From Acidimicrobiaceae bacterium (GTDB taxonomy: Bacteria; Actinomycetota; Acidimicrobiia; Acidimicrobiales; Aldehydirespiratoraceae), in NCBI GenBank assembly GCA_009844405.1, contig VYBO01000130.1:12-64011 (forward strand): a stretch of DNA of 64,000 nt. The letters are read 5' to 3'. Shown here piece after piece: positions 39,760 to 55,121 of the stretch (its first letter is position 1; every line of letters starts with the position of its first letter). The translations under genes were made by a program, and so were the position numbers. A model generated the notes under the pieces. It saw nothing but the letters and a program-made list of their open reading frames with translations, was not told where the DNA came from and did no database searches.

Positions 39760-39809
39760 CAAGACGGTGTTGATCACACCGGAAGTAGGCTCTGAACAGG
39801 GATCTTGGG

Positions 39810-39853
39810 AGCCCGAGACAGGAGTCGAACCTGCGACCTGCTGTTTACAAGAC
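39810..39853 (-). repeat. Partial duplicate of tRNA-Thr(TGT): anticodon arm to 3' end (att-like direct repeat, distal copy)
   Basis: The 44 nt AGCCCGAGACAGGAGTCGAACCTGCGACCTGCTGTTTACAAGAC are identical to 55048-55091 inside the intact tRNA gene. Confidence 0.85.
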
Positions 39854-39999
39854 GCAAGAAGCAGGTGTCGGCCAGTATCAGCCCGTACCAGAAAGTACGT
39901 CTGACGTCGGCTTTCGCGATCCGGCCGTGTCAGCGAGTGCCTGTGGATATCGCCCAGTTTCTAACTGTACGTTAGAAGATCCGTTAGAAGACTCGGCCC
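39850..39999 (+). repeat. ~150-bp island-arm repeat, left copy
   Basis: AGACGCAAGAAGCAGGTGTCGGCCAGTATCAGCCCGTACC...TTCTAACTGTACGTTAGAAGATCCGTTAGAAGA is roughly 90% identical by eye to 54834-54982. It contains three GTTAGAA motifs, one of them inverted. Confidence 0.85.
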
Positions 40000-40294: not shown

Positions 40295-41077
40295 TTGCAC
40301 GACGCGATGGCTGCGCAACCACTTGGCCCGTTTGGATCTTTGGGCGACGTGCGGCGTGCCGGCGAGGTGTTGCGCCAGGCACAGGCCAGCGAGGGCAACC
40401 TGCCCTCGATTGAGGAAGTCCGCGATGCCCGTGAGGTTGTCGAGGCGTATCGGTCTGCTCATGCTGCGCCCTTGCATGCCGCCTACATGGGGATGCGATC
40501 ATGCCTGACCACCGAGGGCTTCTATGTCGATCTCTTCAATCTCGACGTCTCGCGGCGGCTCAAGAGGCTGCCCACCATCGAGGACAAGCTCCGGCGGCTC
40601 CCCACGATGGACCTGTCGACCATGCAGGACATCGGAGGTTGCCGGGCCGTTCTCAACACCCAAGATCAGGTCCAACGGGTCGTAGAGCGATTCTGTGCCA
40701 ACAGCCTCAGACGAAACCGACGGCCCGACAGGATCAGAGACTACGTGGCCGAGCCTCAAGACTCCGGTTACCGGGCCATCCACATCTACACGAGGTACCA
40801 CGGCCGGCGGATCGAGGTGCAGCTCCGCACCCGAGAACAGGACAGCTGGGCCAAGATCGTGGAGGACTTGACCAGCAAGACCGGCATCGACTTCAAGAAC
40901 GGCGACGGTCCCGATGAGGTTCACGAAATGCTCCGGGCACTGTCGCAGCTCCTGTCTCAGCGAGAGCCGGGAGAGCCATACTCGAAGGAACTCATGGGCG
41001 TTCTCACCCGGCTGGCTCTGGTGGCAACGGCCGGCCTTGCTGTAGGGTCTCATCACCGAAGAACAAGGGAGGACTGA
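40295..41077 (+). CDS. RelA/SpoT-domain nucleotide pyrophosphokinase (small alarmone synthetase, toxSAS-like)
   Basis: Synthetase-fold motifs MQDIGGCRAVL, ..SGYRAIHIY.., ..IEVQLRTREQDSWAKIVE... No HD hydrolase, TGS or ACT domains. 260 aa. Confidence 0.75.
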   Translation: MHDAMAAQPLGPFGSLGDVRRAGEVLRQAQASEGNLPSIEEVRDAREVVEAYRSAHAAPLHAAYMGMRSCLTTEGFYVDLFNLDVSRRLKRLPTIEDKLRRLPTMDLSTMQDIGGCRAVLNTQDQVQRVVERFCANSLRRNRRPDRIRDYVAEPQDSGYRAIHIYTRYHGRRIEVQLRTREQDSWAKIVEDLTSKTGIDFKNGDGPDEVHEMLRALSQLLSQREPGEPYSKELMGVLTRLALVATAGLAVGSHHRRTRED

Positions 41078-41361
41078 TGGCTAAGCGCAAGACCATTGAC
41101 TTCCTCATCGTGTACGACCATGACGCAAGGAAGCAGATCAGCCTCGAGGAGTTCCGCAACACGGCTCAAGCGCTCAAGGCCTACAGTGAACGCGAAGAGC
41201 AATACCGCGACAACCACCGATTGGAGGTCGTCCTGCTGGGTGCCGACTCCATAGAAGCCATCAAGGTCACTCACTCCAACTACTTCGAGGACACAGCCGA
41301 CGCCCTCGACGACCTGCTCGCCAGCCTCGGGCCCGAACCGATCCCGGCTGTTGGGCCCTAG
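41077..41361 (+). CDS. Small acidic protein, candidate cognate antitoxin of the RelA/SpoT-domain protein
   Basis: 94-aa ORF whose ATG overlaps the upstream TGA (TGATG), with a GGGAGGA RBS inside the upstream gene. No recognisable motif. Confidence 0.5.
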   Translation: MAKRKTIDFLIVYDHDARKQISLEEFRNTAQALKAYSEREEQYRDNHRLEVVLLGADSIEAIKVTHSNYFEDTADALDDLLASLGPEPIPAVGP

Positions 41362-41446
41362 GACCTCTCCGCTGGCCCCACGCTGAGCGCGTCGCAAGAA
41401 GCCGGAGAGCTGGTCCGCCGATTCGCACGACGGTCTGAGTTTCTCC

Positions 41447-41482
41447 TTGTTCTGTGTTCCTGTACACAAGAACACAGAACAA
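41447..41482. terminator. Bidirectional hairpin between convergent genes
   Basis: Perfect 13-bp inverted repeat TTGTTCTGTGTTC-(10 nt)-GAACACAGAACAA, between the + strand pair (ends 41361) and the - strand giant gene (ends 41595). Confidence 0.5.
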
Positions 41483-41594
41483 CATCGATCGTCCGCGGCT
41501 GAGGTTCAGGATCGTCACCTCGGGAGCGCATGCCTTGCGCAGTGAAGGCCCTACGAGCTATCCCAGGCGAGGACTCTCGCCCCCGGTCGGCTGG

Positions 41595-44500
41595 CTAGTC
41601 CTCAGCAGACTGAGATTCGAGGATGACAGCGACACCGCCTGGGTCGATGTCCCACTCCAGCGCGAGGTAGCGGGCACCTACCATCGCGTCGAACTCAGCA
41701 ACGCCGCCGCCCTCCCGCAGCCCGGTTGCGATTTGCTTGGCGAAACAAGGCTCAGTGCTCGTCCCCTCAAGTTCCGACTGGACTCTGTCCGCGGTCATAG
41801 CAAGAAGGTCGAGTAGATCCCTGACGAACGGGTCGTCAGGGATGTCGTTCAATTGCTCATATGCCGTTGCGAACTCCGATGTGGCCGACTCAACGACAGC
41901 AAGGACAATCTCGTGGGACTGCTGTTCATCTGGCAGTTGGGAGATGCCCGACAGTGCTTGTAGGGCATGCTGGCACTGATCGAATAGGTTCGCGAGAGGG
42001 CTGGGATGTGCAGCGGGCAGCATTTCAAGACCTTCAGGATTGGGGAACGGCCACAGGTTGCCGACGAGCTTTGTAGCCAGGCTTGGAGCCGGTCGGCCAT
42101 CGCGCAGCGGAACGAAGACGAAGGTTTCCTCCACTGGTCGGTCCGCGCCGAGCGCCTCCTCAAGGCTGGCGACAGCGGCTGGCCAATCGAGTAGGGAAGC
42201 GACATCGACTGACACCAAGTACTCGGCGAAGCCTGCGTGTTCGCGATCGACGTGGCGGATCGTGGCTGCTAGACCGGTCTCTCGAAGGGTGGCTTGGACA
42301 GCAGGGCGCCTAGTCTGATTGCGGCGGCGCTCAAGCTGCCTACAAGTCTGGGCAGCGCGCTGCAGCGCACGGGCTGGCGTCCCCGATTGCGCGCTGCGTC
42401 TGATGCGAGCCACATCGGCATCGGCTTCTGCGAGTTCATTGATCACAGCGTGCAGGTCCAGCAGCGTTGAACGGAGCGAGTCGAGACAAGGTGGATGGTC
42501 CTCAACTCCCATGAGATGCCATGGCTGGCCGATTGCACCCTGCAGGTGCTTCTCAAGGACGGTGTCACTGATGTAGGCCGCCAGCGCTCGATATCCATCT
42601 GGGTTGGTAAGCCGCTGGAACACATTGCCGGTCAAGTCGGTGATGAGGGCGGACAGGTCGTCGGCCTTGTCGTTCGGCCTCTCGTCGGACATAGCAATGT
42701 CACCGAGTTGCGCGGGCCCTGATGCCGGGCGAAGTGCACGGCCGCCTTCGTGCAGTTCCGCGAGTTGCGTGTTCAGCCCTTGGAGATCGCGCTCCTCCCC
42801 GGCCACGAATCCGTTGCCGAGGCGCAGGGTGAGACTGGCGGCACGCTCAAGCAGGGGGAGCGCTTCGGAGAGTCGCGTGGTGTCGGCTGCACCGAGAAGC
42901 GACTGCGCCGCTTGAAGGCGGACTTGATTCCAGGCGCGAGCTGCCGACGTGTGGTCATACTGGCGCCTAAGGCGGCTGATTCCATGCGTGTGACCGCCAA
43001 TTGTCAGTGGCAAGCCTCCCGGCCAGAGTGCCTGGACATCGACGCTCTCGATGTGCGGGAGGCAGCGCAACAGCAAGCGTCCGAGCGCGATCGCTTCCTC
43101 GCCCGCGTCGGGCTGAGCCGAATCCGACGTGTGAAGGAAGCGGCAGTAGCCGACGGTCTCGCCGTCAACCGAGCGGGTGTCCAATTCCATTATCCACGGG
43201 TTTTCTGCGCGGATCCTTCTGATGACGGCGGACTCACGACCGAGCAACTCGACGAGGTGCGCTGCTAGCTGCGGTTCGCAGTTGCGCGCTGTCGCAACGC
43301 ACGTGGCCAACCCGTCCACCGAAGCGGCTCGAAGGCTCACTCCAAAGGAGGACCTGGAGACCAGGGCGTTGCGAAGAGCTACAGATAGTTCCGGTGGGCT
43401 TCCTTCCATTACCTCAAGCAGTCGGGTTGCTCGAACTAGGGAACTCTCAGATGCAACCAGGTCGGCCACCTCGGCGTGGCCTATCGCAGCTACCAGATCG
43501 TCCCTGGACCTCCGTTCGACAGCAGAGTCCATTGCCTCACGTGCAGCCCGAAGCTCCGCGGGAAAGAAGTCGGGGAATTCGAGTCCCGCAGCTGCGAACA
43601 GGACAAGGACTGGCTGGCTTGATGCCGGCACTCCGTGTTGCTCCGCGATCTGCTTCCACTCTCTCGCACGGTCGTAGAAGTCAGCGAGTCGAAGGCCTTG
43701 CCCGACCCCAACTAAGCGCTCCGGATCTACCGGACCGGCAGTCTCGGCTTCGATGACGACTTGGCGGGCGTCGGGTATGTCGGCGAGCATCGACGCTACG
43801 AATCGATGTAGCTGTGGTGTGGGAATCAGACGGACCACTCGTCTCACGCTCTCTGTGAGTTGCGGTGGGGGTAGCCGATGGATGGCATTGCACAGAGCGA
43901 TCGAACGGAGCCGGTGCAGACCCCCGATCTCTCCTTCCCGCTCAACAATGAGGTGCTCCGCGACAAGACGGCTCAGCGCCGCGCGGGTTTGGAGGCCGGT
44001 CAATTCGCACGCATGGGCAAGCGCGGTCGTTGAGATTCGTGCGGACCACCGATCCGCGACCGAGGTCAGGGCGAGAATGTCAAGCTCGTTGTGTCGTCCT
44101 TCGTCAATGCGTCGGCGGACCTGTTCGTCGATGACGTCGCCAAGCCGGTTCCCTCGGGTGAGCAGGTGTGTGAACTCAAGCGTCAGCCCGCGCGACGCTT
44201 CGAAGGCCTCCATCCAGTGGGCAGCACCGGTCGCTTGACGCCGAACCAGCCCGTTGAAGATCGTCTCTGCGGCTGCTTCGTCAAGACGCACATCGATGGA
44301 GGCGCACATCGAGAGGTCGCCAAGCACAAAGAGATCCTCAGCTCGCGCTGTCGCAACGAGAAGCAGGCCGGGCAGCGCTGCCGCTGCGGAGCGGAGTTCC
44401 GCCCAGCCCGTCAGGTCAGCGGTGCCAGCTGCATCAATCAGGAATCCGACGGGTCTATCGTGGGCCACTCCATAAGCCCGAGCGAGCCGGATGAGGTGAT

Positions 44501-45629
44501 GGACATCGCGAGCTGACAGGCGCTTGATGCGGAACCAGAGCACGCCAGGGAGCGCTAAAGGGATGGTCCACAGGACAGCGCTCTTGCCGACACCCGACGG
44601 CCCTGCGATTACTGCTGCTGAGCGATCATCCAGCCCGGATAGGACTTCAGCGACGAGCTCCGGGCGTGGGACCACAAGATTCGATGCGACATGAAACGGC
44701 TGCGTGGCCATGCCTTCGTAGTACCGGTCATCCCCTGGCTGCGACGCTGGGTACTCAAGGGTCTCGCACATCCCCTGCCGTATCGCGAACTCGAGAGACT
44801 CAAGGTCGAGATGAGCGACGACCTGCTCGATCGTGCTAACGGCCGCGGTTCGGTCGAGCCGCCGACGGGCCTCGTAGCTCGCCGTCGCGTTTGCGTCCGC
44901 GGCGTCTGCCACATCCGAGCACAGTTGCCGAGCAACGAGCCTCAGCGCCGAGGGTGGTAGGTCCCACTGACTGCGAATGTGAGTAACCGTCGCGGCCAAG
45001 ACTTCTGCTCTGCTGGCCCCGAGGACGACTGTCGTGGCCAGCAGTTCCGATAGGTCGCGCCGGCTCATGCCATGACTCGTCGCTCTTGTTGCCAGATTCG
45101 TCACGAGCGGGGACCCATCGTTCATGCGGTCCGCCAGTGAAGTGCCGAGATCATCTAGCCCGTTGAGGTCTTCCTCGCCCGTCACGCCGCGTTCGAGCAC
45201 GACGATTAGGGCCGCGCCCCGGTGCCCTCTAGAAGCGTGCCGCTCCCAGGCATCGAGAATGTGCCTGCTAGCCGTAGACGGCGGGAACTTGTCAAGATGC
45301 TCGACCCTCGACTTGACCTGGACGTGGCGCGGCTCGTCGCCTTCTAGCGACAAGTCTTCGAAGCCCTCAGGAACGAGCCATGTAGGTCCGATCCCGCATG
45401 CAAGTCGGGCAGCTAGCCAGGCACCCACCTCATCCTGAAAGTGGAAGCCGCGCCCCGAGCGGGCGCCAGATCTTGATTTCGACCACTGGCTGACCAGCAA
45501 CTCGCCATTGGAGTCCTCGTCCACTTCAACAGGCCGAGTCTCGCAGGGAGCGCTCTCGATCGGCTTTCGAGTCGGCGTCTTCCTTGGTCGGGAGCCCTTC
45601 CCGCGGCGCTTAGCCCGCTTCTTCGCCAT
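41595..45629 (-). CDS. 1344-aa protein: N-terminal Cap4-type (DUF4297-like) PD-(D/E)xK nuclease + P-loop NTPase + long helical C-terminal region (Avs/STAND-like architecture)
   Basis: N-terminus: ..GRGFHFQDEVGAWLAARL..LVPEGFEDLSLEG..RHVQVKSR.. (GxxFQ...E-x-ED...QxK). Walker A VIAGPSGVGKSAVLW at ~aa 340, Walker-B-like RPVGFLIDAAG, then ~900 aa of Leu/Ala-rich helical sequence. Confidence 0.7.
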   Translation of the reverse strand: MAKKRAKRRGKGSRPRKTPTRKPIESAPCETRPVEVDEDSNGELLVSQWSKSRSGARSGRGFHFQDEVGAWLAARLACGIGPTWLVPEGFEDLSLEGDEPRHVQVKSRVEHLDKFPPSTASRHILDAWERHASRGHRGAALIVVLERGVTGEEDLNGLDDLGTSLADRMNDGSPLVTNLATRATSHGMSRRDLSELLATTVVLGASRAEVLAATVTHIRSQWDLPPSALRLVARQLCSDVADAADANATASYEARRRLDRTAAVSTIEQVVAHLDLESLEFAIRQGMCETLEYPASQPGDDRYYEGMATQPFHVASNLVVPRPELVAEVLSGLDDRSAAVIAGPSGVGKSAVLWTIPLALPGVLWFRIKRLSARDVHHLIRLARAYGVAHDRPVGFLIDAAGTADLTGWAELRSAAAALPGLLLVATARAEDLFVLGDLSMCASIDVRLDEAAAETIFNGLVRRQATGAAHWMEAFEASRGLTLEFTHLLTRGNRLGDVIDEQVRRRIDEGRHNELDILALTSVADRWSARISTTALAHACELTGLQTRAALSRLVAEHLIVEREGEIGGLHRLRSIALCNAIHRLPPPQLTESVRRVVRLIPTPQLHRFVASMLADIPDARQVVIEAETAGPVDPERLVGVGQGLRLADFYDRAREWKQIAEQHGVPASSQPVLVLFAAAGLEFPDFFPAELRAAREAMDSAVERRSRDDLVAAIGHAEVADLVASESSLVRATRLLEVMEGSPPELSVALRNALVSRSSFGVSLRAASVDGLATCVATARNCEPQLAAHLVELLGRESAVIRRIRAENPWIMELDTRSVDGETVGYCRFLHTSDSAQPDAGEEAIALGRLLLRCLPHIESVDVQALWPGGLPLTIGGHTHGISRLRRQYDHTSAARAWNQVRLQAAQSLLGAADTTRLSEALPLLERAASLTLRLGNGFVAGEERDLQGLNTQLAELHEGGRALRPASGPAQLGDIAMSDERPNDKADDLSALITDLTGNVFQRLTNPDGYRALAAYISDTVLEKHLQGAIGQPWHLMGVEDHPPCLDSLRSTLLDLHAVINELAEADADVARIRRSAQSGTPARALQRAAQTCRQLERRRNQTRRPAVQATLRETGLAATIRHVDREHAGFAEYLVSVDVASLLDWPAAVASLEEALGADRPVEETFVFVPLRDGRPAPSLATKLVGNLWPFPNPEGLEMLPAAHPSPLANLFDQCQHALQALSGISQLPDEQQSHEIVLAVVESATSEFATAYEQLNDIPDDPFVRDLLDLLAMTADRVQSELEGTSTEPCFAKQIATGLREGGGVAEFDAMVGARYLALEWDIDPGGVAVILESQSAED

Positions 45630-45762
45630 ATCGCGATGGTTGCAGTGACCTATGACACTTGCCGGAATCGCCCCGATCGGGAAGCGCGCGGCCTCCAGAA
45701 GATCCCAAAGGATGGGTGCTCACCGATGGATGCTCTCGTCTCATTGGATCGCCTCACAGGAC

Positions 45763-48700
45763 TCAGGGCGCGGACAGGGAGCAGAGGTCCGACAAGAGGC
45801 TCCTAAGGTCCTCGACGGGGATGATCGTCGTGCCTACGTCGCTACCCAGATGGCGGAGCAGGTCGGCGGCGATGGATGGTGCGCTGGTCACGAGGATGTC
45901 CTCGATCTGCCAGTCGCCGGCGCGTCCCGCGAGTTGCATCTGACGGTGGAGCGTTGACCAGTGGTCTCGCACGAACTTGACACGCTCGTTGTGGCGGGCA
46001 ACGGCCGGGTTCTCTCCGGAAACAAGCTTGTCGAGATCCTGCTTGATTTCGCGGGCGCTCCGCGACGTAGCGAAGCTCTTGGCTTCGATGATCGAAAGAG
46101 TCTTGCGATGCTTGTTGATGACGAGCACATCGATGTCCCCTAGCTTGTCGCCGTTCTGTCGTTCTAGCGAAGTGTTTCCGAGCGACTTCACTTGCACGCT
46201 CACCTGGTTGTGCGGGTCCCTGCGGAAGATGTCGGCGACTTCGCTCTCGAACTCCCTGCTGATGCGGTTGCGCTGCTGGCTGATGTACCGCTTCATCGAG
46301 CGCGACTTGGCCGCTAGCCGGCCGGAAGACATCTGCTCGAACAGCGCTTCTGTGGCGGTCCAAGGCGCCTGGCTGCCCCAAGTGGCTACCAACTCATCGT
46401 CCCCGCATTCTCGAATCAAGACAGGACGACGTAGGAATGAGTTTTCTCTCGCGTAGCGCCACGGCGTGAAATCCGGATCGAACAGATCTGGGTCCTTATC
46501 GGCTGGCGCCGCCCTTAGCGACATCATGTTGATCATTCTTGTTGCCTGCTGTTGGTCGAGTTCGGTGGTCGTGGTGAGATCGTGCAGAAGATCGGAAACG
46601 AGCATTGTCCTCACTTGAACGTCGTTGCCCGCAGCGAGTTCGCTCAGGCGCTCCACCGCTTCAAGGAACCCGATGAAAGGCACGCCGAACTCGGCTTCGA
46701 ACACGGCCGATGCCTCTCTGAGATCGGCCGCGGGCGGAGGGTCTTGGCTTGCCATGAAGTTGGCCCACTCGGCTAGTAGGTCTTGGGCCGCAAGGGCGCG
46801 CGCATTCGTGTCGGTGCGGTCGCCCACGGCTTGGCAGTACGGATCGCTCAGGTCCATTCGTAGACAGCCGGGTTCCCGAAAGTACAGGTCCGTATCCGAT
46901 AGCTCTAGGCGGTAGGCGTCGCCAATGGAGCCCAATGCGATCATCTGCTGGGAGATCGCCAGGAGTTCGTCGTAGCGCGAGAACGACATCGGGCGGTGGC
47001 CGCCGCGGACGCAGCGCACGGCCGATTCGATCAGGTAGCGGCTCGCCAAAGCGCTCTGTTCGATCTCATGATGTTTCTCGATCGCGCTACGCATGTCGCC
47101 GCCGTTGTCAGCGTCGGTGAATGGGTTCGGGGCCATGACGCGCAACATCGTCCTGTCGCGTTGCATCCGCTCCTGCTCCGACGCGAGCAACTCAAAGGTC
47201 GTATAGGGGTCGAGTTCGCGAAGTTTCTCGCGCAACCTGCCGTCGAGGGTGCGCACGATCTCCACGATGATCTCTACGCGACGCTCCACAGGGACGGGGC
47301 CGAACTGTAGACCGAGGCCGGACGCAATCGCGTCGATCTCGTTTACCACGCCATCAAGTTCGAGGTGGTATTGCAGCCGGCACCCGGGCAGATGTGCGCC
47401 ACCGTGGACGCCGGGTACATATCCGATGCCGACATGCATGAACCGCGGGCCTTCGTGGATGCTGACGTCGTTGAGGTCGGCGTCCATAACGGCGGATGGC
47501 CGTCCTGCCAGCGACGCCAGTGACCTTGCCACTTCCACGATCAGTTCTTGTTCTGCAGCATCGGCTACCTGCGATAGGCGCGCTGCGGCATTGGGCAGCA
47601 GTCGCACGGTGATTCGGTGCTCATCACGATCGACTGCGATCTCGAACCACGGCGCGTCGTCGGCGTGGTCGACGTCCGCGAATGAGAGTACGGACCCGTC
47701 GGGATCGACGATCTCGATGACGACGCACGAGGCGCTCACGGCAATCGTGTCCAGATTCGTGTCGACACGGTCTCGTATCCGCCACAGGTGGAGCGAGAGG
47801 GCGTCTGCTACTCCCGCACAGAACCGCTGCGATTGAGTGCCAGCGCCATGGGCTCCGACCCAGCACGGCAGAGCAAGCTCAACCAGCCTCAGATGTCTCA
47901 GATCCTCGCGCTGAGGTACGTACACACGCACGCTCTCGCTCACAGCTTCGCGGCTCACAGGCACCGCTCTCGAGCCATCGGGTAGAGGGACGGCATGTGC
48001 ATCTGATCGGCGTCGCTCTCTGACAGCTAGGGGTGCTCCAAACCCGGGGGGCAGCAGGATGCCGCGTGCTTCTGGGCCGCTAAGTCGACGCGGCCTTCTG
48101 TCGGACTGGAGGTACAGCGCGTAGGCGTCTGCTGCATTGTTGACCGTTCCGTAGCCGGGCAGACGGATTTCGGCGAGGGCCCTTACGAACCGCCAGAGCC
48201 CCAGGCTGTCGTCCCGCTCGTGGTGGGCAATTGTGCGCATCTCATCGATGGTCAGCAGGAGAACCGACCGGCCTCCACCTTCAAGCTCAGTGAAGTCCGC
48301 ATGCATCGGGCGGCCGATCGGCACCATGAGCACTAGGTGAAGAACCTCACCGGCCGGGTTGGCGGCGCGCGCCGCGTCGCGGACATGTTGCATGCGCTTG
48401 TTGATGCATTGCATCTGCGAGGTGGAGTCGGTCGCCGCATGTGGCCTCGCGGTCTCGTATCCGTTGAGATCGTCAGCGAATACGACAACATGCGCGATCT
48501 TGTCAATATCGAACGCGAATAACGCATCTTGGAGATTGCTGGATGGTTGGAGTGCCAGCGAGGCGTCCAGTGGAACCCACCTCATCTGCTGACATAGACG
48601 TTCTGTCTCGGCCAGAACGGCTCGCTCGAAGGCTGCCATCAGATGGTGGTGCACGCCACTCGCGGCGGCCCTCGCTGCGACGCGATGCACTACAGAGAGG

Positions 48701-49467
48701 GCGAGCTGGTTTGGCGATGGCACGATCAGCCCGTTCGAAGAAGAATTCAGGGACAGCGGATACAGGAGGGCCCGGTCGTCGGTCAAGCGGGCGCGATCTC
48801 GCTTCCAAGCGATCCGCTTCGTGGGCCAGCACAGATCGGAGAAGCCCTCAAGCCCGCCGAATCGGGTCTCCAAGTCCGGCCCGTCGATGCAGACAGCCGC
48901 CTTCAGGCGCCGGAGCTCTTCCACTGGCGGAATGTGAACTCCTCTGTCCTTCTCGAACTTGGGTTCCTGCCAGCGTTCCAAGCCGCCGCCGCGCGCGGCC
49001 CTGTCGGAGATCCAAAGAAGGCGGGCTGCGTCGCGTCGCATCAGTTCTTGCACACCTGCAGCCTCGGCCGGAATTTTGTCGAGTGCTTGGAGCACGAACT
49101 GGCATACGGTCGCCGCGTTGGCGACCGCGCCTGGGACTGTGAGGTACTCGGCGTCGTCGAATACGACTGGTGCTGTGAACGGACTCTCGAAGGGATCTTC
49201 GTGGGCGAGCACATGGTCACTAGCGATCGGAGGACCCGTCAACAGAGCTTCAATGTCGGCGACTGCCGCTGTCCGCTGCGGAAGAGCGGGGCGCACGGCT
49301 CGCGTCGCCTCGACCAAGCGTGCGAAGCGGAGCCACTTCGTAGCGTTGTCGGGTAGGAGCTGAAGTGCCCCCGCACTCAGGAGCAGTGAGTCGGTCACAC
49401 TCCGAAGTTGCGGGCCCAAGCGGGCCAACTCGCGAGGAGTGCCCCTGCGAGATCCCGGGAGCCTCAT
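45763..49467 (-). CDS. 1234-aa protein of unknown function with a C-terminal PD-(D/E)xK-like nuclease motif
   Basis: Uninterrupted ORF whose ATG overlaps the stop of the upstream E2-like gene (ATGA at 49464-49467). C-terminal motif ..LGDIDVLVINKHRKTLSIIEAKSF.. (D-x13-E-x-K; nt 46081-46140). No Walker A or other motif recognised in the first ~1100 aa. Confidence 0.7.
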   Translation of the reverse strand: MRLPGSRRGTPRELARLGPQLRSVTDSLLLSAGALQLLPDNATKWLRFARLVEATRAVRPALPQRTAAVADIEALLTGPPIASDHVLAHEDPFESPFTAPVVFDDAEYLTVPGAVANAATVCQFVLQALDKIPAEAAGVQELMRRDAARLLWISDRAARGGGLERWQEPKFEKDRGVHIPPVEELRRLKAAVCIDGPDLETRFGGLEGFSDLCWPTKRIAWKRDRARLTDDRALLYPLSLNSSSNGLIVPSPNQLALSVVHRVAARAAASGVHHHLMAAFERAVLAETERLCQQMRWVPLDASLALQPSSNLQDALFAFDIDKIAHVVVFADDLNGYETARPHAATDSTSQMQCINKRMQHVRDAARAANPAGEVLHLVLMVPIGRPMHADFTELEGGGRSVLLLTIDEMRTIAHHERDDSLGLWRFVRALAEIRLPGYGTVNNAADAYALYLQSDRRPRRLSGPEARGILLPPGFGAPLAVRERRRSDAHAVPLPDGSRAVPVSREAVSESVRVYVPQREDLRHLRLVELALPCWVGAHGAGTQSQRFCAGVADALSLHLWRIRDRVDTNLDTIAVSASCVVIEIVDPDGSVLSFADVDHADDAPWFEIAVDRDEHRITVRLLPNAAARLSQVADAAEQELIVEVARSLASLAGRPSAVMDADLNDVSIHEGPRFMHVGIGYVPGVHGGAHLPGCRLQYHLELDGVVNEIDAIASGLGLQFGPVPVERRVEIIVEIVRTLDGRLREKLRELDPYTTFELLASEQERMQRDRTMLRVMAPNPFTDADNGGDMRSAIEKHHEIEQSALASRYLIESAVRCVRGGHRPMSFSRYDELLAISQQMIALGSIGDAYRLELSDTDLYFREPGCLRMDLSDPYCQAVGDRTDTNARALAAQDLLAEWANFMASQDPPPAADLREASAVFEAEFGVPFIGFLEAVERLSELAAGNDVQVRTMLVSDLLHDLTTTTELDQQQATRMINMMSLRAAPADKDPDLFDPDFTPWRYARENSFLRRPVLIRECGDDELVATWGSQAPWTATEALFEQMSSGRLAAKSRSMKRYISQQRNRISREFESEVADIFRRDPHNQVSVQVKSLGNTSLERQNGDKLGDIDVLVINKHRKTLSIIEAKSFATSRSAREIKQDLDKLVSGENPAVARHNERVKFVRDHWSTLHRQMQLAGRAGDWQIEDILVTSAPSIAADLLRHLGSDVGTTIIPVEDLRSLLSDLCSLSAP

Positions 49468-49985
49468 CGGTCCTCCTGGTCCGCCCCGGAGCCAGCAAGC
49501 ACTCTCTGGTTCCGACCGCTGGCGTGAGCCTTGCTCCTACGGCGGGAGAGATGCCGATGGTGTGTTGTCGATCCGACAATTGGGCCGGTGTGGTTGCCGC
49601 CGCTTCCGCACCATTCCCCGGTAGCACGCCAGAACTCGTAGTGGAGGAGCCACTCACAGGCCCACGGGAGGATGGTCACAGCGATTGGATCGCCGGGGGA
49701 CCACTGGCCGGGTTCATGCAGGCAGAGGCTGCCGTCCGGGTAGATGTGGGGCAGGTTGCCGTCGGTGTCGACGACGAGCTTCGGGCGACGGACGAAGACG
49801 CGCGGGTGATACGGCGGCGCGTAGCGGAGGGCTACAAGGTATTGCCGGCTGACCTCGCTGGGTTGGAGTTCACCGGTCCACTGCAGCACTCCAGCCTTCA
49901 GCGTCGCCTGCCCGTGCGGGTAGTGATCGTCGAGCAGTCGCGCCTCCCGTACGAGTGCGAGGGTGCGTCTATCGGTCTGGGCCAT
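49464..49985 (-). CDS. Stand-alone prokaryotic E2-like (UBC-fold) protein, CBASS type II(short)-style
   Basis: ..LPHIYPDGSLCLHEPGQW.. resembles the E2 HPN..G.ICL catalytic-Cys loop. 173 aa. The start overlaps the CD-NTase stop by 17 nt. Confidence 0.6.
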   Translation of the reverse strand: MAQTDRRTLALVREARLLDDHYPHGQATLKAGVLQWTGELQPSEVSRQYLVALRYAPPYHPRVFVRRPKLVVDTDGNLPHIYPDGSLCLHEPGQWSPGDPIAVTILPWACEWLLHYEFWRATGEWCGSGGNHTGPIVGSTTHHRHLSRRRSKAHASGRNQRVLAGSGADQEDR

Positions 49986-51105
49986 GAAAGTCGTGGGGCT
50001 GAATCTTGGTGCCGCTCCGATCGGTCACTCTTCCCTGCTGGACGACGCTGAGGCCGCCGGCAGCTGCAAGGGACGAGAGGCCCACCCCGACTCGCTTGGC
50101 TCCGGCCTGCACCGGGGCAGCACCGAGTGCAGTGCCAAGCGACCTGACGGCCTCGTCAACGCCGTTGCTGGTGGCCCAGCGGTCGGTATCGGCTACCAGC
50201 GCCTCGACCCACCGATCGAAGTGTCTCTTGCGGTCCGGGTTCGTGTTCCACTTGTCCGCGAAGTTCTCCTCCTCGTGGGCCGGGTTGGGGACCCACCAGG
50301 TGCCGTTGCGCCATTCGACGTGAGACGGGAGGCTGCGAGCCACCTTCCGGAACGCCTCGTATAGGTCGCTTTCCCCGCCGTAGGCATGCGTTGCCAAGGT
50401 CGTGATAAGGATGGAGGCTGGTTTGTCCTGGGGGTTGCTCCGGAAGAACCTGTCGCGGTGCAGCTTCAGCAACTGAACCACCCGTTGCAGCGCGGTTCTC
50501 ACCAGCCACTGAGGAACGTCTTCGACGTCTCGGCTGAGCATCACAGCCAGTTGCGCCCTGGCGACATCAACGGCCTCCCCCATGGAACTCCAGAACCAGT
50601 CGGCGTATCCGATCGGGTTGCTGTGCTGCCACAGGAACAGGTCGCGATCTGACAGCAGCACGGCGGTGTCGTCGCCGTCGGGATCGGGGATGACGGGCAG
50701 CACGTCCATGTGGAAGCGGTCACCCGCATAGATGAGTTCCCAGCAGCGGCCTCGCTCCTTCAGTGTCGGGTTTCCGTTGCTGGCTCCGCGTACGGTGATG
50801 TAATCCGTCAGTAGCTGCCCAGCCTGGGCGCGGAGTTCCTTCTGGGTGATCGACTCCTTGGTCAGGAGTCGGAGGTGGACCAGGTCGATGTCGAAGTCCC
50901 CGCCGGCGGTCGGTCGCAGCACGGTTCCCAGCCGGAACGAGCCCTGTGGGTACACTTCGCGTTCGTCGACGCCTTGGGCGACGAGCCATTGGCCGAGATC
51001 CGTGTATCGATGCTCTGCGAGCGCAAACTGCTGGGGTGAGATGTCGAGTTCCCCGGCCGTTGCGTCGAGCACTCGCGAGGTCACCTGGAGATTGCTATTG
51101 GGCAT
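49969..51105 (-). CDS. CD-NTase (cGAS/DncV-like nucleotidyltransferase, SMODS-type)
   Basis: Start MPNSNL.. (ATG 51105). Pol-beta NTase core QGSFRLGTVLRPTAGGDFDIDLV (GS-x13-DxD) plus a third acidic HMDVLP. ..SILITTLA.. helix. The N-terminal LDISPQQFALAEHRYTDLGQWL is typical of SMODS. Confidence 0.75.
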   Translation of the reverse strand: MPNSNLQVTSRVLDATAGELDISPQQFALAEHRYTDLGQWLVAQGVDEREVYPQGSFRLGTVLRPTAGGDFDIDLVHLRLLTKESITQKELRAQAGQLLTDYITVRGASNGNPTLKERGRCWELIYAGDRFHMDVLPVIPDPDGDDTAVLLSDRDLFLWQHSNPIGYADWFWSSMGEAVDVARAQLAVMLSRDVEDVPQWLVRTALQRVVQLLKLHRDRFFRSNPQDKPASILITTLATHAYGGESDLYEAFRKVARSLPSHVEWRNGTWWVPNPAHEEENFADKWNTNPDRKRHFDRWVEALVADTDRWATSNGVDEAVRSLGTALGAAPVQAGAKRVGVGLSSLAAAGGLSVVQQGRVTDRSGTKIQPHDFHGPDR

Positions 51106-52168
51106 GGGTGAGCTCCTTTCCATGGAAGGGGGTGTACGGAGAGGGGGAGTGCTGGAAGAAGTCGGCCAGCGCAGGCGAGCATGTGCGGCTCTCAGCGAGG
51201 GCACGTCCGATCAGGTCCGGGGCGGTCACCGAGTCGAGCTTGTGAAGGCCCACGGGGGTCGGCGCGTCCACCCGCACCACGTTGGACCGCCCGAGAATGA
51301 GCTGGGCATGGTTGGTGGCTGCCAGGCTCTGCCCTCGCAGCATCACCTTGAGGCCGTCCGAGCGCCAAGCGAACAATCCCCCGTTGTCAAGAGTGGTCCG
51401 GCGTTCGCGGACTTCGTTCGTGGTGCCCACATTGAGGACGCGGATGCGGCCGCGCTCACCGCCGAGACGGTCGAAGCACTCCGCCACCCCCACCAGCGTC
51501 GGGTTGTTGGCCCACACACCGCCGTCAATCAGACGGTGCGCCTCCACCCGGTGAGTGGGGAGGAACGCCGGCGCTGCCGCGGTGGCCAAGGCCACGTCCA
51601 CGGCCGCCACTCGCCAGTCGCGTCGCAGGTCCCGATGGTGGGGGGTGCGGAACAGATGGACGTGATCCGCGGCTAGGTCGTAGCTGGGGATGGCGAGTCG
51701 GACCCTCGAAGCGCCGAGAAGCCGATCTCTGAAGCGGTCTTGCAGCACTGCTCGCAGTCCAGCGGCGTTGTATCGAGGCCACCGGAGTCGTCGCAATAAC
51801 CCGTGACGTGCTCGCCCCGCCCGTGGGAAGATGCGGTCGCCGTGTTCGAGATAGATCGACAAAACCTCAGTCGGCGGCACGCCCAGCCCAAGCGCCAGAG
51901 CGATGATGCCACCCGTCGAGGTCCCGACTATGAGATCGAAGTGGTCGGCGATCGACGTGCGGAAGTCCTCCTCCCAGGCAGCCAAGGTTGCCGCAGTGAA
52001 GATCCCGCGCAGCCCGCCTCCGTCGAGCGCGAGCACTTGGAGGAGCGGAGCGCTCCGATCCGGCGACCCAGCGGGCGTGGAATCGGACTCGACACCGATC
52101 ACGTAGCCGCTGGCAGCCTGAGGCTGGTCGTCGGCGTTCTCAGGCTTGGCTATCCGGATCTCAGTCAT
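51095..52168 (-). CDS. capV: Patatin-like phospholipase (CapV-like CBASS effector)
   Basis: Oxyanion DGGGLRG, nucleophile elbow GTSTGG and catalytic Asp in IDGGVWANNP. The stop overlaps the CD-NTase start by 11 nt. Confidence 0.8.
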   Translation of the reverse strand: MTEIRIAKPENADDQPQAASGYVIGVESDSTPAGSPDRSAPLLQVLALDGGGLRGIFTAATLAAWEEDFRTSIADHFDLIVGTSTGGIIALALGLGVPPTEVLSIYLEHGDRIFPRAGRARHGLLRRLRWPRYNAAGLRAVLQDRFRDRLLGASRVRLAIPSYDLAADHVHLFRTPHHRDLRRDWRVAAVDVALATAAAPAFLPTHRVEAHRLIDGGVWANNPTLVGVAECFDRLGGERGRIRVLNVGTTNEVRERRTTLDNGGLFAWRSDGLKVMLRGQSLAATNHAQLILGRSNVVRVDAPTPVGLHKLDSVTAPDLIGRALAESRTCSPALADFFQHSPSPYTPFHGKELTHAQ

Positions 52169-52232
52169 GCCGCGCTCCTCGGCTCGGCTCTAGGGTCCAC
52201 CACAAGCACATAACGTCAGTGTAATATCACTT

Positions 52233-52247
52233 CAACATGTTGTCAAC
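52233..52247. promoter_or_regulatory. Overlapping palindromes at the start of the XRE-HIRAN gene, plus a TAATAT -10-like hexamer (52222-52227)
   Basis: CAACATGTTG (52233-52242) and GTTGTCAAC (52239-47) straddle the ATG at 52237. TAATAT lies 9 nt upstream of the ATG with no SD sequence, which is a leaderless-type arrangement. The site sits in the 68-bp divergent intergenic region shared with the patatin gene. Confidence 0.4.
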
Positions 52248-53217
52248 CCGAGGCCTCATCTCCGTGACTGATCCATCCCCACCACCGGTGCTGACCTTGT
52301 CGGAGCTGAGACGGCGGCTCGGACGATCACAAGCCGAGGTCGCTACCACGATCGGCACGACCCAATCAGGCGTCTCGCGCATCGAGCACCAGGCCGACAT
52401 GCACGTGTCAACACTCAACGAGTACGCCTTCGCCCTAGGTGGGCGCCTGCGCTTGATTGTGGAACACGGCGACGATCACACCGAGATCGGGATCCCGGCG
52501 CTACGTCAGGAGCGACGCGAGCAGCGTCGAGAGTTCCGTGTGATCTGGCAGGACCAACCAACCCGGAGCCTGGTGCAGGTCGGGTGGCTCGTGTACACCG
52601 GCGACGAGTTCACGTTCTCATACGTCGACGAAGCCAAGTCCCACGAGCGGTTCCAGCCATTCCCCGCCTTCCCGCGCCTGGATGAGACCTACAAGGCAAG
52701 CGAACTTTTTCCGTACTTCGCCCTACGACTCACCAGCGCGGCCGATCCGCACTACGACGCTGTGTTGGACGCACTGGGACTCACCCGTGAAGACGCGACA
52801 CCCGTGGAACTGCTTGCACGGTCACCCGACTCGCCCCATGACACCATCCAGGTAGTGCCCGAACCCACGGAAATGGCCGATGGCACGCTCGTTCGCCTGT
52901 TTCTCGTGTCCGGTACCCGCCACGCAGACGAACGGGATCCCGACACCGTGAGCCGACTCATCGAGGACCTCGCTACGGACTCACTCCTCGACCTCGTGGC
53001 CGAGCCCAACAACCGGCACAACCCTCAGGCGCTTCATATCGCGGCAAATGGCAAACGACTCGGCTGGGTACCCGACTACTTGCTCTCGGAGATTCACGGC
53101 TACATCGACACAGACCGTCCAGTGTCAATCGCTGTCGCTCAAGCGAACGGTCCGGACGCCCCACCGCACATGCGCCTCCTATGCCGACTGACCGTAGCCC
53201 CCGGGACACCCGATTGA
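52237..53217 (+). CDS. XRE-family HTH protein with a C-terminal HIRAN domain
   Basis: N-terminal HTH: LTLSELRRRLGRSQAEVATTIGTTQSGVSRIEH. C-terminal HIRAN-like: ..LLDLVAEPNNRHNPQALHIAANGKRLGWVPDYLLSEI.. (EPxNxxDxxA..G..lGyvP pattern). Confidence 0.7.
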   Translation: MLSTRGLISVTDPSPPPVLTLSELRRRLGRSQAEVATTIGTTQSGVSRIEHQADMHVSTLNEYAFALGGRLRLIVEHGDDHTEIGIPALRQERREQRREFRVIWQDQPTRSLVQVGWLVYTGDEFTFSYVDEAKSHERFQPFPAFPRLDETYKASELFPYFALRLTSAADPHYDAVLDALGLTREDATPVELLARSPDSPHDTIQVVPEPTEMADGTLVRLFLVSGTRHADERDPDTVSRLIEDLATDSLLDLVAEPNNRHNPQALHIAANGKRLGWVPDYLLSEIHGYIDTDRPVSIAVAQANGPDAPPHMRLLCRLTVAPGTPD

Positions 53218-53284
53218 GCGTCAGCAACTCGCCGGATGCGGTGGCGTGTGAGGTTCTGCTGGCTGCAGAGTCCTTCAAGGCGGT

Positions 53285-53830
53285 CTAGGTCTTCGAGCGG
53301 GACGAGTCCCTCGCGGCTTTGCGGCGCAGCAGTCGCAGGACTCGTGTGATCCGGTCGTTGACCTGGCACTGGCCGTGAAGTCGGGCGATCTTGTCGCAGG
53401 CGTACTCAACCACGCCGATCGCGGCCACAGTGAGGGCCTCAGCGCTTTCGGCGGTGGCGATCTTCTCGACCTCGGGCATCATCCGCCACCACCGGTGCTC
53501 GTTGCCGAAGGCGCGGCGGCTGGCCCGCCACATGGTCACGTCGTCGAGGGTCACCTGGTCACCGAAGCGCGCTATCACCGTGGTCTGGTCCTCGTCGGGG
53601 AGGTGGGCCACGACGGTGGCGATGTCGCGGGAGTACAGGGCCCGCGCGTCGGTCTGCATCGCCGCTCCGAGTGCCCGCAGCGCTTCTTCGATGACGGCTG
53701 CGGCGCCCTGCGACGGGGCGCAGTGGCGCCAGGGGTCGTTGTATTCTTGGCTGCGAGGGCTGATCTCGATTAGGCGCCGGTGTGCTTGCTCGAGGTGGTA
53801 GTAGGCGGCCTCGATGTCGGTGTCGGGCAG
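53285..53830 (-). CDS. HEPN-like protein (partner of the upstream MNT); start unresolved
   Basis: Helical protein with ..AAYYHLEQAHRRLIEI.. and an Rx5H motif (RAFGNEH). The only upstream ATG (53947) would overlap the MNT gene by 178 nt. No ATG or GTG lies near the MNT stop, so this is either a frameshift or a non-canonical start. Confidence 0.4.
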   Translation of the reverse strand: MPDTDIEAAYYHLEQAHRRLIEISPRSQEYNDPWRHCAPSQGAAAVIEEALRALGAAMQTDARALYSRDIATVVAHLPDEDQTTVIARFGDQVTLDDVTMWRASRRAFGNEHRWWRMMPEVEKIATAESAEALTVAAIGVVEYACDKIARLHGQCQVNDRITRVLRLLRRKAARDSSRSKT

Positions 53831-54204
53831 GGCCTGGGCTTGTCCCAGACCACGGCGCTGTCGTCTCCCTGGCTGGCCGCGACAACCACCAGGTTGTCTC
53901 GGATCGCCGCCGCGAACGACGACGCCATCTTGTTCTGCGCCGCCCACTCAGCCACGTCGGTGACCCAGATTGTCACGTAGTGTCCGCAGGCGTCGCCCGC
54001 AATGCGCATCAGGTCAAGTCGCAGCTGCCAGCGGTTCTTGTAGTCCACGTCGTCGAAGATGGCCACAAGGTCGATGTCGCTGACCGGATCGGCGCCGCCG
54101 GCCACAACCGAGCCGTAGGCCAGCACCTCGCGGGCTCCGGCACCGGTGAGGGCCCGGCCGGCTGTTCGGGCGTCCTCAAGAGTGGGCGCGGCCATCTCGG
54201 TCAC
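53770..54204 (-). CDS. Nucleotidyltransferase-domain protein (MNT-like)
   Basis: REVLAYGSVVAGGADPVSDIDLVAIF (GS-x10-DxD). The C-terminal ~25 aa (PRPCPTPTSRPPTTT..) look like out-of-frame read-through. Confidence 0.65.
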   Translation of the reverse strand: MTEMAAPTLEDARTAGRALTGAGAREVLAYGSVVAGGADPVSDIDLVAIFDDVDYKNRWQLRLDLMRIAGDACGHYVTIWVTDVAEWAAQNKMASSFAAAIRDNLVVVAASQGDDSAVVWDKPRPCPTPTSRPPTTTSSKHTGA

Positions 54205-54833: not shown

Positions 54834-54982
54834 AGACGCAAGAAGCAGGTGTCGGCCAGTATCAGCCCGTACCGGAAAGTGGGTTTGACGTGGGCTTTCG
54901 CGATTCGGCCGTGTCAGCGAGTGCCTGTGGATATCGCCCAGCTTCTAACCGTACGTTAGAAGATCCGTTAGAAGATCGGCCC
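54834..54982 (+). repeat. ~150-bp island-arm repeat, right copy
   Basis: Matches 39850-39999 with scattered substitutions and one 1-nt indel. It lies 62 nt from the tRNA-Thr(TGT) 3' end. Confidence 0.85.

Positions 54983-55044: not shown

Positions 55045-55121
<77 letters not shown>

Follow-up and report, generated by a model that had tools for sequence, protein, structure and literature searches.

An E2-type CBASS operon and a divergent HTH-HIRAN gene, a candidate CBASS regulator, on a tRNA-Thr defence island of an acidimicrobial bacterium

The window analysed here is a stretch of 64,000 nucleotides from an Acidimicrobiaceae bacterium (contig VYBO01000130.1 of assembly GCA_009844405.1, positions 12 to 64,011, forward strand). 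Within it lies a three-gene operon of the anti-phage signalling system based on cyclic oligonucleotides (CBASS), encoding a patatin phospholipase, a nucleotidyltransferase of the cGAS/DncV-like kind (CD-NTase; NTase for short) and a stand-alone E2, a ubiquitin-conjugating type of enzyme; divergent from it is a gene for a protein with helix-turn-helix (HTH) and HIRAN domains, a candidate regulator of the operon. The sequence and its list of open reading frames (ORFs) gave three intact minus-strand ORFs at 51095-52168, 49969-51105 and 49464-49985, the first two overlapping by 11 nt (51095-51105) and the last two by 17 nt (49969-49985), exactly as a first-pass annotation of this DNA had noted. 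The three genes are translationally coupled. Shine-Dalgarno-like sequences stand ahead of the patatin and CD-NTase starts and of the start of a Upx-like gene farther downstream, and the 17-nt overlap is kept in the related loci L001-L011 and L072. The motifs quoted in the first-pass annotation were likewise all found: DGGGLRG, GTSTGG and IDGG in the patatin, QGS...DFDID...HMDVLP and the end HDFHGPDR in the CD-NTase, and HIYPDGSLCLHEP in the E2.

A scan for relatives of the CD-NTase, taking one genome per species, yielded 79 loci, and the closest relatives (80-84% identity) are from metagenome-assembled genomes of Acidimicrobiia. Where a patatin homologue is present (about 38 of the 79 loci) it always lies directly upstream of the NTase gene, and the order patatin-NTase-E2 is common to Acidimicrobiia, Micromonospora, Protofrankia, Actinomadura and Nitrospira. 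The effector-first order, earlier called unusual, is instead the rule. The capV-dncV genes of Vibrio cholerae likewise begin with the effector. The same order has been described for CmaABC of Mycobacterium abscessus (PMC12359967).

The first gene (51095-52168, minus strand) encodes a CapV-type patatin phospholipase of 357 residues. It matched Pfam Patatin (9.1e-25), the PADLOC Effector/Phospholipase model (7e-100) and the NCBIfam equivalog NF041079 (CBASS_lipase, CBASS cGAMP-activated phospholipase; 258 bits, cutoff 200), and in the PDB it matched CBASS phospholipases at 2e-44 and AbCapV at 2.6e-26. Its motifs GGGxRG (DGGGLRG), GTSTG and DGG (IDGG) are in register with those of the solved CBASS phospholipases. 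Judged by sequence, the CD-NTase thus has beside it a predicted effector gene from a recognised CBASS effector family.

The CD-NTase gene (49969-51105, minus strand) encodes 378 residues from the ATG at 51105. An alternative GTG at 51204 would give 411 residues; the ATG is favoured because the homologues are 376-378 residues long. Not one of the 80 relatives differs at the catalytic residues G55, S56, D72, D74 and D134, and the lid reads SNPIGY (residues 162-167). The PADLOC Cyclase model matched over the full length (5.7e-105), Pfam DncV-like_NTFase scored 29.8 bits (cutoff 24.9), and precomputed PF18144 (SMODS) and PF21654 (DncV-like_NTFase) are recorded for exactly this sequence in a large protein database. 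PDB sequence matches were to clade G enzymes only (VcCdnG 7e-49, SmCdnG 3e-28, BdCdnG 3e-6). We built an AlphaFold2 (AF2) model on 27 homologues, with no E2 partner (predicted local distance difference test score, pLDDT, 86.6). Its best fold match was SmCdnG of the CdnG-E2 complex (8yjy_A/8hsb_A; template-modelling score 0.77-0.78, E 9e-20), followed by BdCdnG and only then by CdnB, DncV and CdnD; the top six matches are all CdnG. The ORF is therefore placed in the CD-NTase/SMODS family, as first proposed, by Pfam, PADLOC, PF18144 and fold, and its nearest neighbours in sequence and fold, rather than a tree, assign it to clade G. About 74% of E2-CBASS systems use a clade G CD-NTase (PMC12948482).

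The C-terminus of this enzyme, HDFHGPDR, had been called unusual for its lack of a terminal Gly. It has a sub-terminal Gly, G375, followed by PDR (HDFHG|PDR), and the same arrangement, H-x-F-[HYFW]-G plus a tail of 1-8 residues, ends every E2-linked relative. The motif is absent from the E2-less relatives, whose C-termini are longer and quite different, and the homology of most relatives ends exactly at G375 of the window protein. In the Serratia system Gly is the only conserved C-terminal residue of CdnG; SmE2 removes whatever follows it, even a green fluorescent protein fusion, and then ligates, becoming covalently joined to the CdnG C-terminus through a thioester at C101 and an isopeptide at K159 (PMC12948482). 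With such cleavage on record, and with all the E2-linked relatives alike, HDFHG|PDR reads as a signature of the class and not as an anomaly. A Gly at the very end is what the Cap2/Cap3 systems would lead one to expect.

Upstream of G375 the model has a helix (329-348) and short strands (353-355, 359-361, 366-367), at pLDDT 50-67 and with the E2 partner absent; the E2-binding helix and beta-sheet of SmCdnG are located at the corresponding place (PMC12948482). The segment from D134 to the lid also differs with the company that the enzyme keeps: among the 80 relatives it is 27-34 residues long in those linked to E2, against 42-53 in most of those that are E2-less. We also noted three relatives of 75-82% identity (P0184, P0242, P0246) that are recorded as single proteins with both DncV-like_NTFase and E2-CBASS domains; these may be NTase-E2 fusions, or the 17-nt overlap may have been read through by frameshift or assembly error.

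The third gene (49464-49985, minus strand) encodes the stand-alone CBASS E2, of 173 residues. Fourteen PADLOC models matched it, 13 of which are E2 or E1-E2 models (best 8.7e-41), and the PDB search aligned it with SmE2 (8hsb_B, 8.7e-12), including the Cys of the LCL motif. The catalytic C88 lies within DGSLCLHEP and H80 within LPHIYP, and none of the 47 homologues departs from either residue; at the C-terminus the protein ends in a basic tail whose one Lys is K152. The homologue in L085 (76% identical) carries Pfam PF26395, E2-CBASS. The 173-aa ORF is thus placed with the CBASS E2s by PADLOC and by its match to SmE2, which was the other family assignment that the first-pass annotation had left to be checked. 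Among the island ORFs scanned with Pfam, PADLOC or NCBIfam, none was found with ThiF (E1), Prok-E2_A-E1 or JAB. A type II CBASS with Cap2/Cap3 (E1E2/JAB) was considered and ruled out, as the 173-aa E2 has no E1 domain and no JAB gene was found among the scanned ORFs.

The 68-bp intergenic region upstream of the patatin gene (52169-52236) is a conserved block. In it lies a sigma-70-like promoter, TTGACA-17-TACACT (52218-52246, minus strand), recognised by its match to the consensus, its function being predicted; it is the only such site in the 12.5 kb from 41000 to 53500. Conservation also points to a putative operator-like element at 52196-52242, made of a TCCACC box and then CATAAC-N6-GTAATATCAC-N6-ATGTTG, for which the family consensus is TAtCAC-N6-GTAcTATCAC-N6-GTGAT. 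In the window the repeat part (about 52209-52242) covers both the promoter-like site and the codon at which the HTH-HIRAN gene starts, and its central 10-mer has no second copy in the window at 0 mismatches. The element was found in 21 of 21 intergenic regions upstream of HTH-HIRAN homologues, 16-78 nt from the HTH start; it follows the HTH-HIRAN gene and not the CBASS type.

The divergent gene itself (52237-53217, plus strand) encodes 326 residues with an XRE/HigA-like HTH, a HipS-like middle part and a HIRAN domain. Pfam HTH_3 scored 24.7 bits (cutoff 23), and PADLOC PDC-M03B matched residues 97-320 at 1.7e-60. Its homologue in L085 passes Pfam HIRAN and weakly matches the HipA N-terminal domain. 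An AF2 model of the window protein (pLDDT 76.6) matched the HIRAN domain of HLTF (probability 1.00) and the HTH of the HigA antitoxin. The family has 353 members at E<=1e-5 in the protein database. The genome scan gave 3 full-length loci; gene contexts were taken also from the protein database, from contig look-ups and from one metagenome scan. Homologues 57-93% identical (L085, L099-L105, L108-L122) occupy the corresponding upstream position at CBASS operons of types I, II, II-short and III. The contexts set out next are those of homologues 57-82% identical to the window protein. In the contig look-ups the gene is always divergent, 60-170 bp from the neighbouring operon, that of L102 having no assigned type. 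The divergent operon is an E2-type CBASS in L085 and L103, a type III system (NTase-HORMA-TRIP13 with a DUF6602 or S_4TM effector) in L099, from Streptomyces, and in L100, a type II system with an E1E2/JAB/patatin fusion in L101, and a type I system with a SAVED effector in L104. The metagenome scan found a PADLOC cyclase in the divergent operon of at least 11 of the 14 loci that have upstream DNA; the metagenome loci that were typed one by one are of types II-short, II and III.

In the sister loci L003, L004, L006 and L009 the same slot holds a CapP/CapH-like pair of Peptidase_M78 and HTH_3 genes (the pair Pfam-confirmed in L003, the HTH partner also in L004 and L006). The known CBASS regulators are CapW (PMC11662680), CapH/CapP (PMC13228613; bioRxiv 10.1101/2022.04.27.489752) and CapK/CapS (PMC13373217), and all three respond to single-stranded DNA (ssDNA) (PMC11662680, PMC13228613, PMC13373217). 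The only domains found in the window protein or its homologue are HTH_3, PDC-M03B/HIRAN and a weak HipA-N-like match, which puts it outside these three classes. HIRAN domains bind the 3' ends of ssDNA. That property fits the theme of ssDNA or DNA-damage sensing in the known classes. A literature search found no paper linking HIRAN with CBASS regulation; the whole-word matches were unrelated CoCoNuT papers only, and matches at the start of words were to the author name Hirano.

The ssDNA response of the three known classes, the 3'-end binding of HIRAN domains and the lack of a link between HIRAN and CBASS in the papers searched lead us to propose that the protein belongs to a fourth, single-polypeptide class of CBASS regulator, one that would sense DNA 3' ends or ssDNA through HIRAN and act through the TATCAC-repeat operator on types I, II, II-short and III. 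We hold the chances of this proposal to be about even.

Downstream, the stop codon of the E2 gene overlaps by 4 nt (ATGA) the start of a gene at 45763-49467 (minus strand) for a giant protein of 1234 residues with a C-terminal PD-(D/E)xK motif. It matched PADLOC Upx at 1.2e-19 and NCBIfam Upx NF042954 at 78 bits, with only the C-terminal 450 or so residues matching, and the precomputed Pfam assignment is PF28173, the Upx-like family. Because the NCBIfam score lies far under the equivalog cutoff of 1900, we regard the protein as Upx-like (PF28173) and not as Upx proper. The nuclease core reads GDIDVLV...IIEAKSF, and D1111, D1113, E1128 and K1130 are invariant in 18 homologues; the catalytic residues of Upx are E1176/K1178 (PMC13099982). 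Relatives of the Upx-like protein were found in genome scans at 2 loci by single sequence and at 6 by alignment profile, and the rest came from protein database and contig look-ups.

After a gap of 133 nt follows an ORF (41595-45629, minus strand) for a STAND-like P-loop NTPase of 1344 residues, with Walker A GPSGVGKS at residue 343 and a weak match to Pfam AAA_16. PADLOC, NCBIfam and PDB searches gave no match for this protein, and the PDB sequence search gave none for the Upx-like protein either. The claim that the operon runs without a gap into two giant genes thus stands for the E2/Upx-like junction and fails at the second giant gene. Among the sister loci of the NTase, the 1344-aa NTPase is found only in the window and in L003 (15479-19507), and a relative with 39% identity adjoins the type III CBASS of L114 (87-2240). 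Upx is sometimes associated in genomes with STAND (Avs1-like) NTPases (PMC13601566, PMC13099982), and the window NTPase could represent the STAND/Avs-like partner that some Upx genes are reported to have (PMC13601566).

All these genes lie on an island inserted at tRNA-Thr, as the first-pass annotation had it. ARAGORN placed tRNA-Thr(tgt), the integration site, at 55045-55121 (minus strand); the 3' 46 nt of this gene (55046-55091) form the right direct repeat, and a copy of 100% identity at 39808-39853, the displaced 3' half of tRNA-Thr, marks the far end. The island is about 15.3 kb long, and G+C steps from 0.70-0.74 outside to 0.62-0.65 inside. No integrase was found among the island ORFs scanned, so the island looks immobilised or mobilised in trans. 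Every recognisable gene on it is defence-like: RelA/SpoT, the P-loop NTPase, the Upx-like gene, the CBASS trio, HTH-HIRAN, and an MntA-like NTase with its partner. At the left end a 260-aa RelA/SpoT-domain protein (40295-41077, plus strand; Pfam RelA_SpoT 2.9e-16, PADLOC PDC-S33 5.7e-53) may be a defence gene of the toxic small alarmone synthetase type. On the other side of the HTH-HIRAN gene, an MntA-like nucleotidyltransferase of 144 residues (53770-54204, minus strand; NTP_transf_2 above cutoff, MntA antitoxin model weak) overlaps a downstream ORF of 220 residues (53285-53947, minus strand) for which the family scans gave no match; the two may be an MNT/HEPN-like toxin-antitoxin pair. A second direct repeat, of 142 nt and 94% identity, lies just inside the island ends (39850-39991 and 54834-54975) and would flank the island core on circularisation. 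Elsewhere in the window ARAGORN called a tRNA-Ala(cgc) at 8432-8528 (plus strand) that is, at 97 nt, unusually long for a bacterial tRNA and may be insertion-bearing or a false call.

With all three families placed by PADLOC, PDB and profile matches much stronger than chance would give, the combination of patatin, CD-NTase and stand-alone E2 bears out the first-pass assignment to type II(short) CBASS. By its sequence the operon is a typical E2-CBASS, its supposed oddities being normal for the class. We consider it very probable that this is a complete and apparently functional E2-CBASS abortive-infection operon on an integrase-less defence island inserted at tRNA-Thr.

The operon might work as follows. 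Transcription would probably start at the single promoter-like site (52246-52218), probably under control of the divergent HTH-HIRAN protein. By analogy with the Serratia system (PMC12948482), the E2 would dock on the module of helix and beta-sheet at the C-terminal end of the CD-NTase (residues 329-367). It would cleave off PDR after G375 and join G375 to its own C88 as a thioester, by which cyclase activity would be controlled; the thioester could be exchanged for a Lys isopeptide, plausibly at K152 of the E2 tail. On phage infection the cyclase would make a cyclic dinucleotide, most likely an isomer of cyclic GMP-AMP (cGAMP), because every one of the nearest characterised relatives is a cGAMP synthase of clade G and the SNPxGY lid is kept; VcCdnG, for one, is a 3'2'-cGAMP synthase (PMC12804361). 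The cyclic nucleotide would then activate the CapV-like patatin, which would degrade the membrane, and the cell would die before phage release.

Several observations weigh against this interpretation. In our local Pfam copy the SMODS score of the CD-NTase is under cutoff (24.9 vs 26.5), its NCBIfam cGAS score is far under (54.5 vs 150), and the local Pfam and NCBIfam copies hold no model matching the E2; as a case against the E2 identity, this last gap is overruled by PADLOC, by the PDB match and by the newer precomputed Pfam PF26395. The proposed covalent link, the place of cleavage, the product of the cyclase, the activation of the lipase and the defence against phage are carried over by homology, which for SmCdnG amounts to 26-27% identity in structural alignment. 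The C-terminal module to which the E2 would bind (329-367) was modelled at low confidence, as its pLDDT values tell. The characterised CapV enzymes answer 3'3'-cGAMP, as in the filaments that AbCapV forms with it (PMC12480259), while the characterised clade G cyclases make 3'2'-cGAMP. Finally, according to a preprint, almost every clade G enzyme has an activation loop that senses proteases (PMC12991175), and the AF2 model of the window NTase has no long disordered internal loop. This loop may be absent from E2-CBASS enzymes, the position of the EcCdnG loop (K184-K218) being one that cannot be mapped with certainty.

The operon could also be a relic on an island in decay, inactive and no longer serving in defence, a reading to which we give hardly any credence. 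It would suit the lack of a recognisable integrase among the scanned island ORFs and the decay seen in sister loci, by insertion sequence in L010 and as a deletion remnant in L084. Against it, the three ORFs are full length compared with their homologues and have every catalytic residue intact, there are Shine-Dalgarno-like sequences before the starts of the patatin, NTase and Upx-like genes, and the promoter-like site and operator-like element are conserved. A different doubt concerns how far the system extends, for the trio could form one four- or five-gene system with the Upx-like gene and perhaps the P-loop NTPase as well, the giant protein being a further sensor, or another effector, tied into the cyclic-nucleotide signal or the E2. 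The 4-nt ATGA overlap is met again in several lineages of Acidimicrobiia, at L003/L080, L010/L081 and L085/L086, with Upx-like proteins that share only 66-74% identity; the order E2 then Upx-like is seen again in L103; no terminator-like site was found on the minus strand from 52168 to 41595; and L084 retains an intact Upx-like gene behind a 190-aa patatin-E2 fusion remnant. We nevertheless think a single system improbable. The giant genes, taken in the first-pass annotation as the continuation of the operon, are absent from most sister loci: the trio occurs without either in L001, L002, L004-L009 and L011-L021, and Upx-like homologues occur without CBASS in L082/L083, L087, L088 and L089. In L010 an ISL3 element interrupts the Upx-like gene and the trio is intact, the reverse of L084. 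According to published work, Upx is a nuclease that senses terminase and suffices as a single protein (PMC13099982, PMC13601566), and no cyclic-nucleotide-binding domain (SAVED, STING etc.) was detected in either giant by Pfam or PADLOC. The most economical reading is of separate defence genes that share one transcription unit in a sub-lineage.

For the HTH-HIRAN protein the alternative is an independent HipN-like component of a toxin-antitoxin or defence system (PADLOC PDC-M03B) that is merely co-localised with CBASS in islands, which we regard as rather unlikely while taking it seriously. PDC-M03B is the strongest profile match; a HipS-like part with HIRAN is the published architecture of HipN, the putative antitoxin of HipI kinases (PMC8262856); and HTH-less relatives of 27-45% identity are found in many metagenome loci. 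Yet neither the window nor any of the CBASS-linked loci has a Hip kinase gene adjoining it, and the HTH-bearing form is always divergent, 60-170 bp from the CBASS operon, across four architectures. The conserved repeat element tracks the HTH-HIRAN gene and overlaps the promoter, and the known regulators CapH/CapP take the same slot in sister loci. These points argue against an independent component.

The E2-CBASS core is one more case of its kind, from a poorly studied uncultured actinobacterial lineage. To comparative data it adds that a sub-terminal H-x-F-aromatic-G with a disposable tail marks the E2-linked cyclases, and that these tend to be without the longer loop of E2-less relatives. 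The HTH-HIRAN gene is of more interest, since how lethal abortive-infection systems are silenced and induced is an active question. If the proposal is true, there would be a HIRAN-based class whose operator can be recognised and which is broadly associated with all the main CBASS types in Actinobacteria; its confirmation would tie the control of immune operons to the HipN/HIRAN module known from Hip toxin-antitoxin systems. A second and weaker novelty may be a sub-lineage of E2-CBASS translationally joined into one transcription unit with a Upx-like nuclease of the terminase-sensor type, and the recurrent Upx-like/E2 coupling is a lead worth following.

Among known regulators, the HTH-HIRAN gene is like CapW, CapH/CapP and CapK/CapS in its divergent upstream slot and its linkage to several CBASS types, and unlike them in that its product has no WYL domain, M78 peptidase or kinase/STAS pair. 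The Upx-like protein shares with Upx a size of about 1230 residues and a C-terminal PD-(D/E)xK core with E-x-K, and its gene is followed by that of a P-loop NTPase, like the Upx genes associated with STAND NTPases. It differs in its N-terminal 730 residues, which have no detectable match, and in its translational coupling to a CBASS E2.

The nearest solved relative of the CBASS core is the E2-CBASS of Serratia marcescens (SmCdnG-SmE2; PDB 8HSB, 8YJY, 9KKB; PMC12948482), the best match for both the NTase and the E2. The two systems share a stand-alone E2 with its catalytic Cys in L-C-L (C101 in Serratia and C88 in the window), a clade G CD-NTase in which a Gly close to the C-terminus is conserved and which, as modelled at low confidence for the window, is extended at its C-terminal end by a helix and beta-sheet, and the lack of E1 and JAB. 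They differ in that the NTases are only about 26-27% identical, the window comes from an actinobacterial (Acidimicrobiia-like) host at about 65% G+C, and its E2 has a longer, Arg-rich tail whose single Lys, K152, is not aligned to K159 of SmE2. VcCdnG and EcCdnG (PMC12804361; PMC12991175) have the same GS, DxD and D residues and SNPxGY lid as the window NTase. These enzymes pair with Cap5 nucleases and make 3'2'-cGAMP, whereas the window NTase pairs with a patatin. The insertion of about 33 residues ahead of the lid in VcCdnG is missing from the window NTase, and the long activation loop of EcCdnG has no disordered counterpart in its model. With the V. cholerae capV-dncV-cap2-cap3 system and M. 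abscessus CmaABC (PMC12359967), the window shares the leading effector gene, a CapV-family patatin and, by prediction, ubiquitin-like regulation of the cyclase; those systems have Cap2, in which E1 and E2 are fused, either together with the JAB peptidase Cap3 or lacking it, and cyclases of clade A or others, and the window has the 173-aa E2 only.

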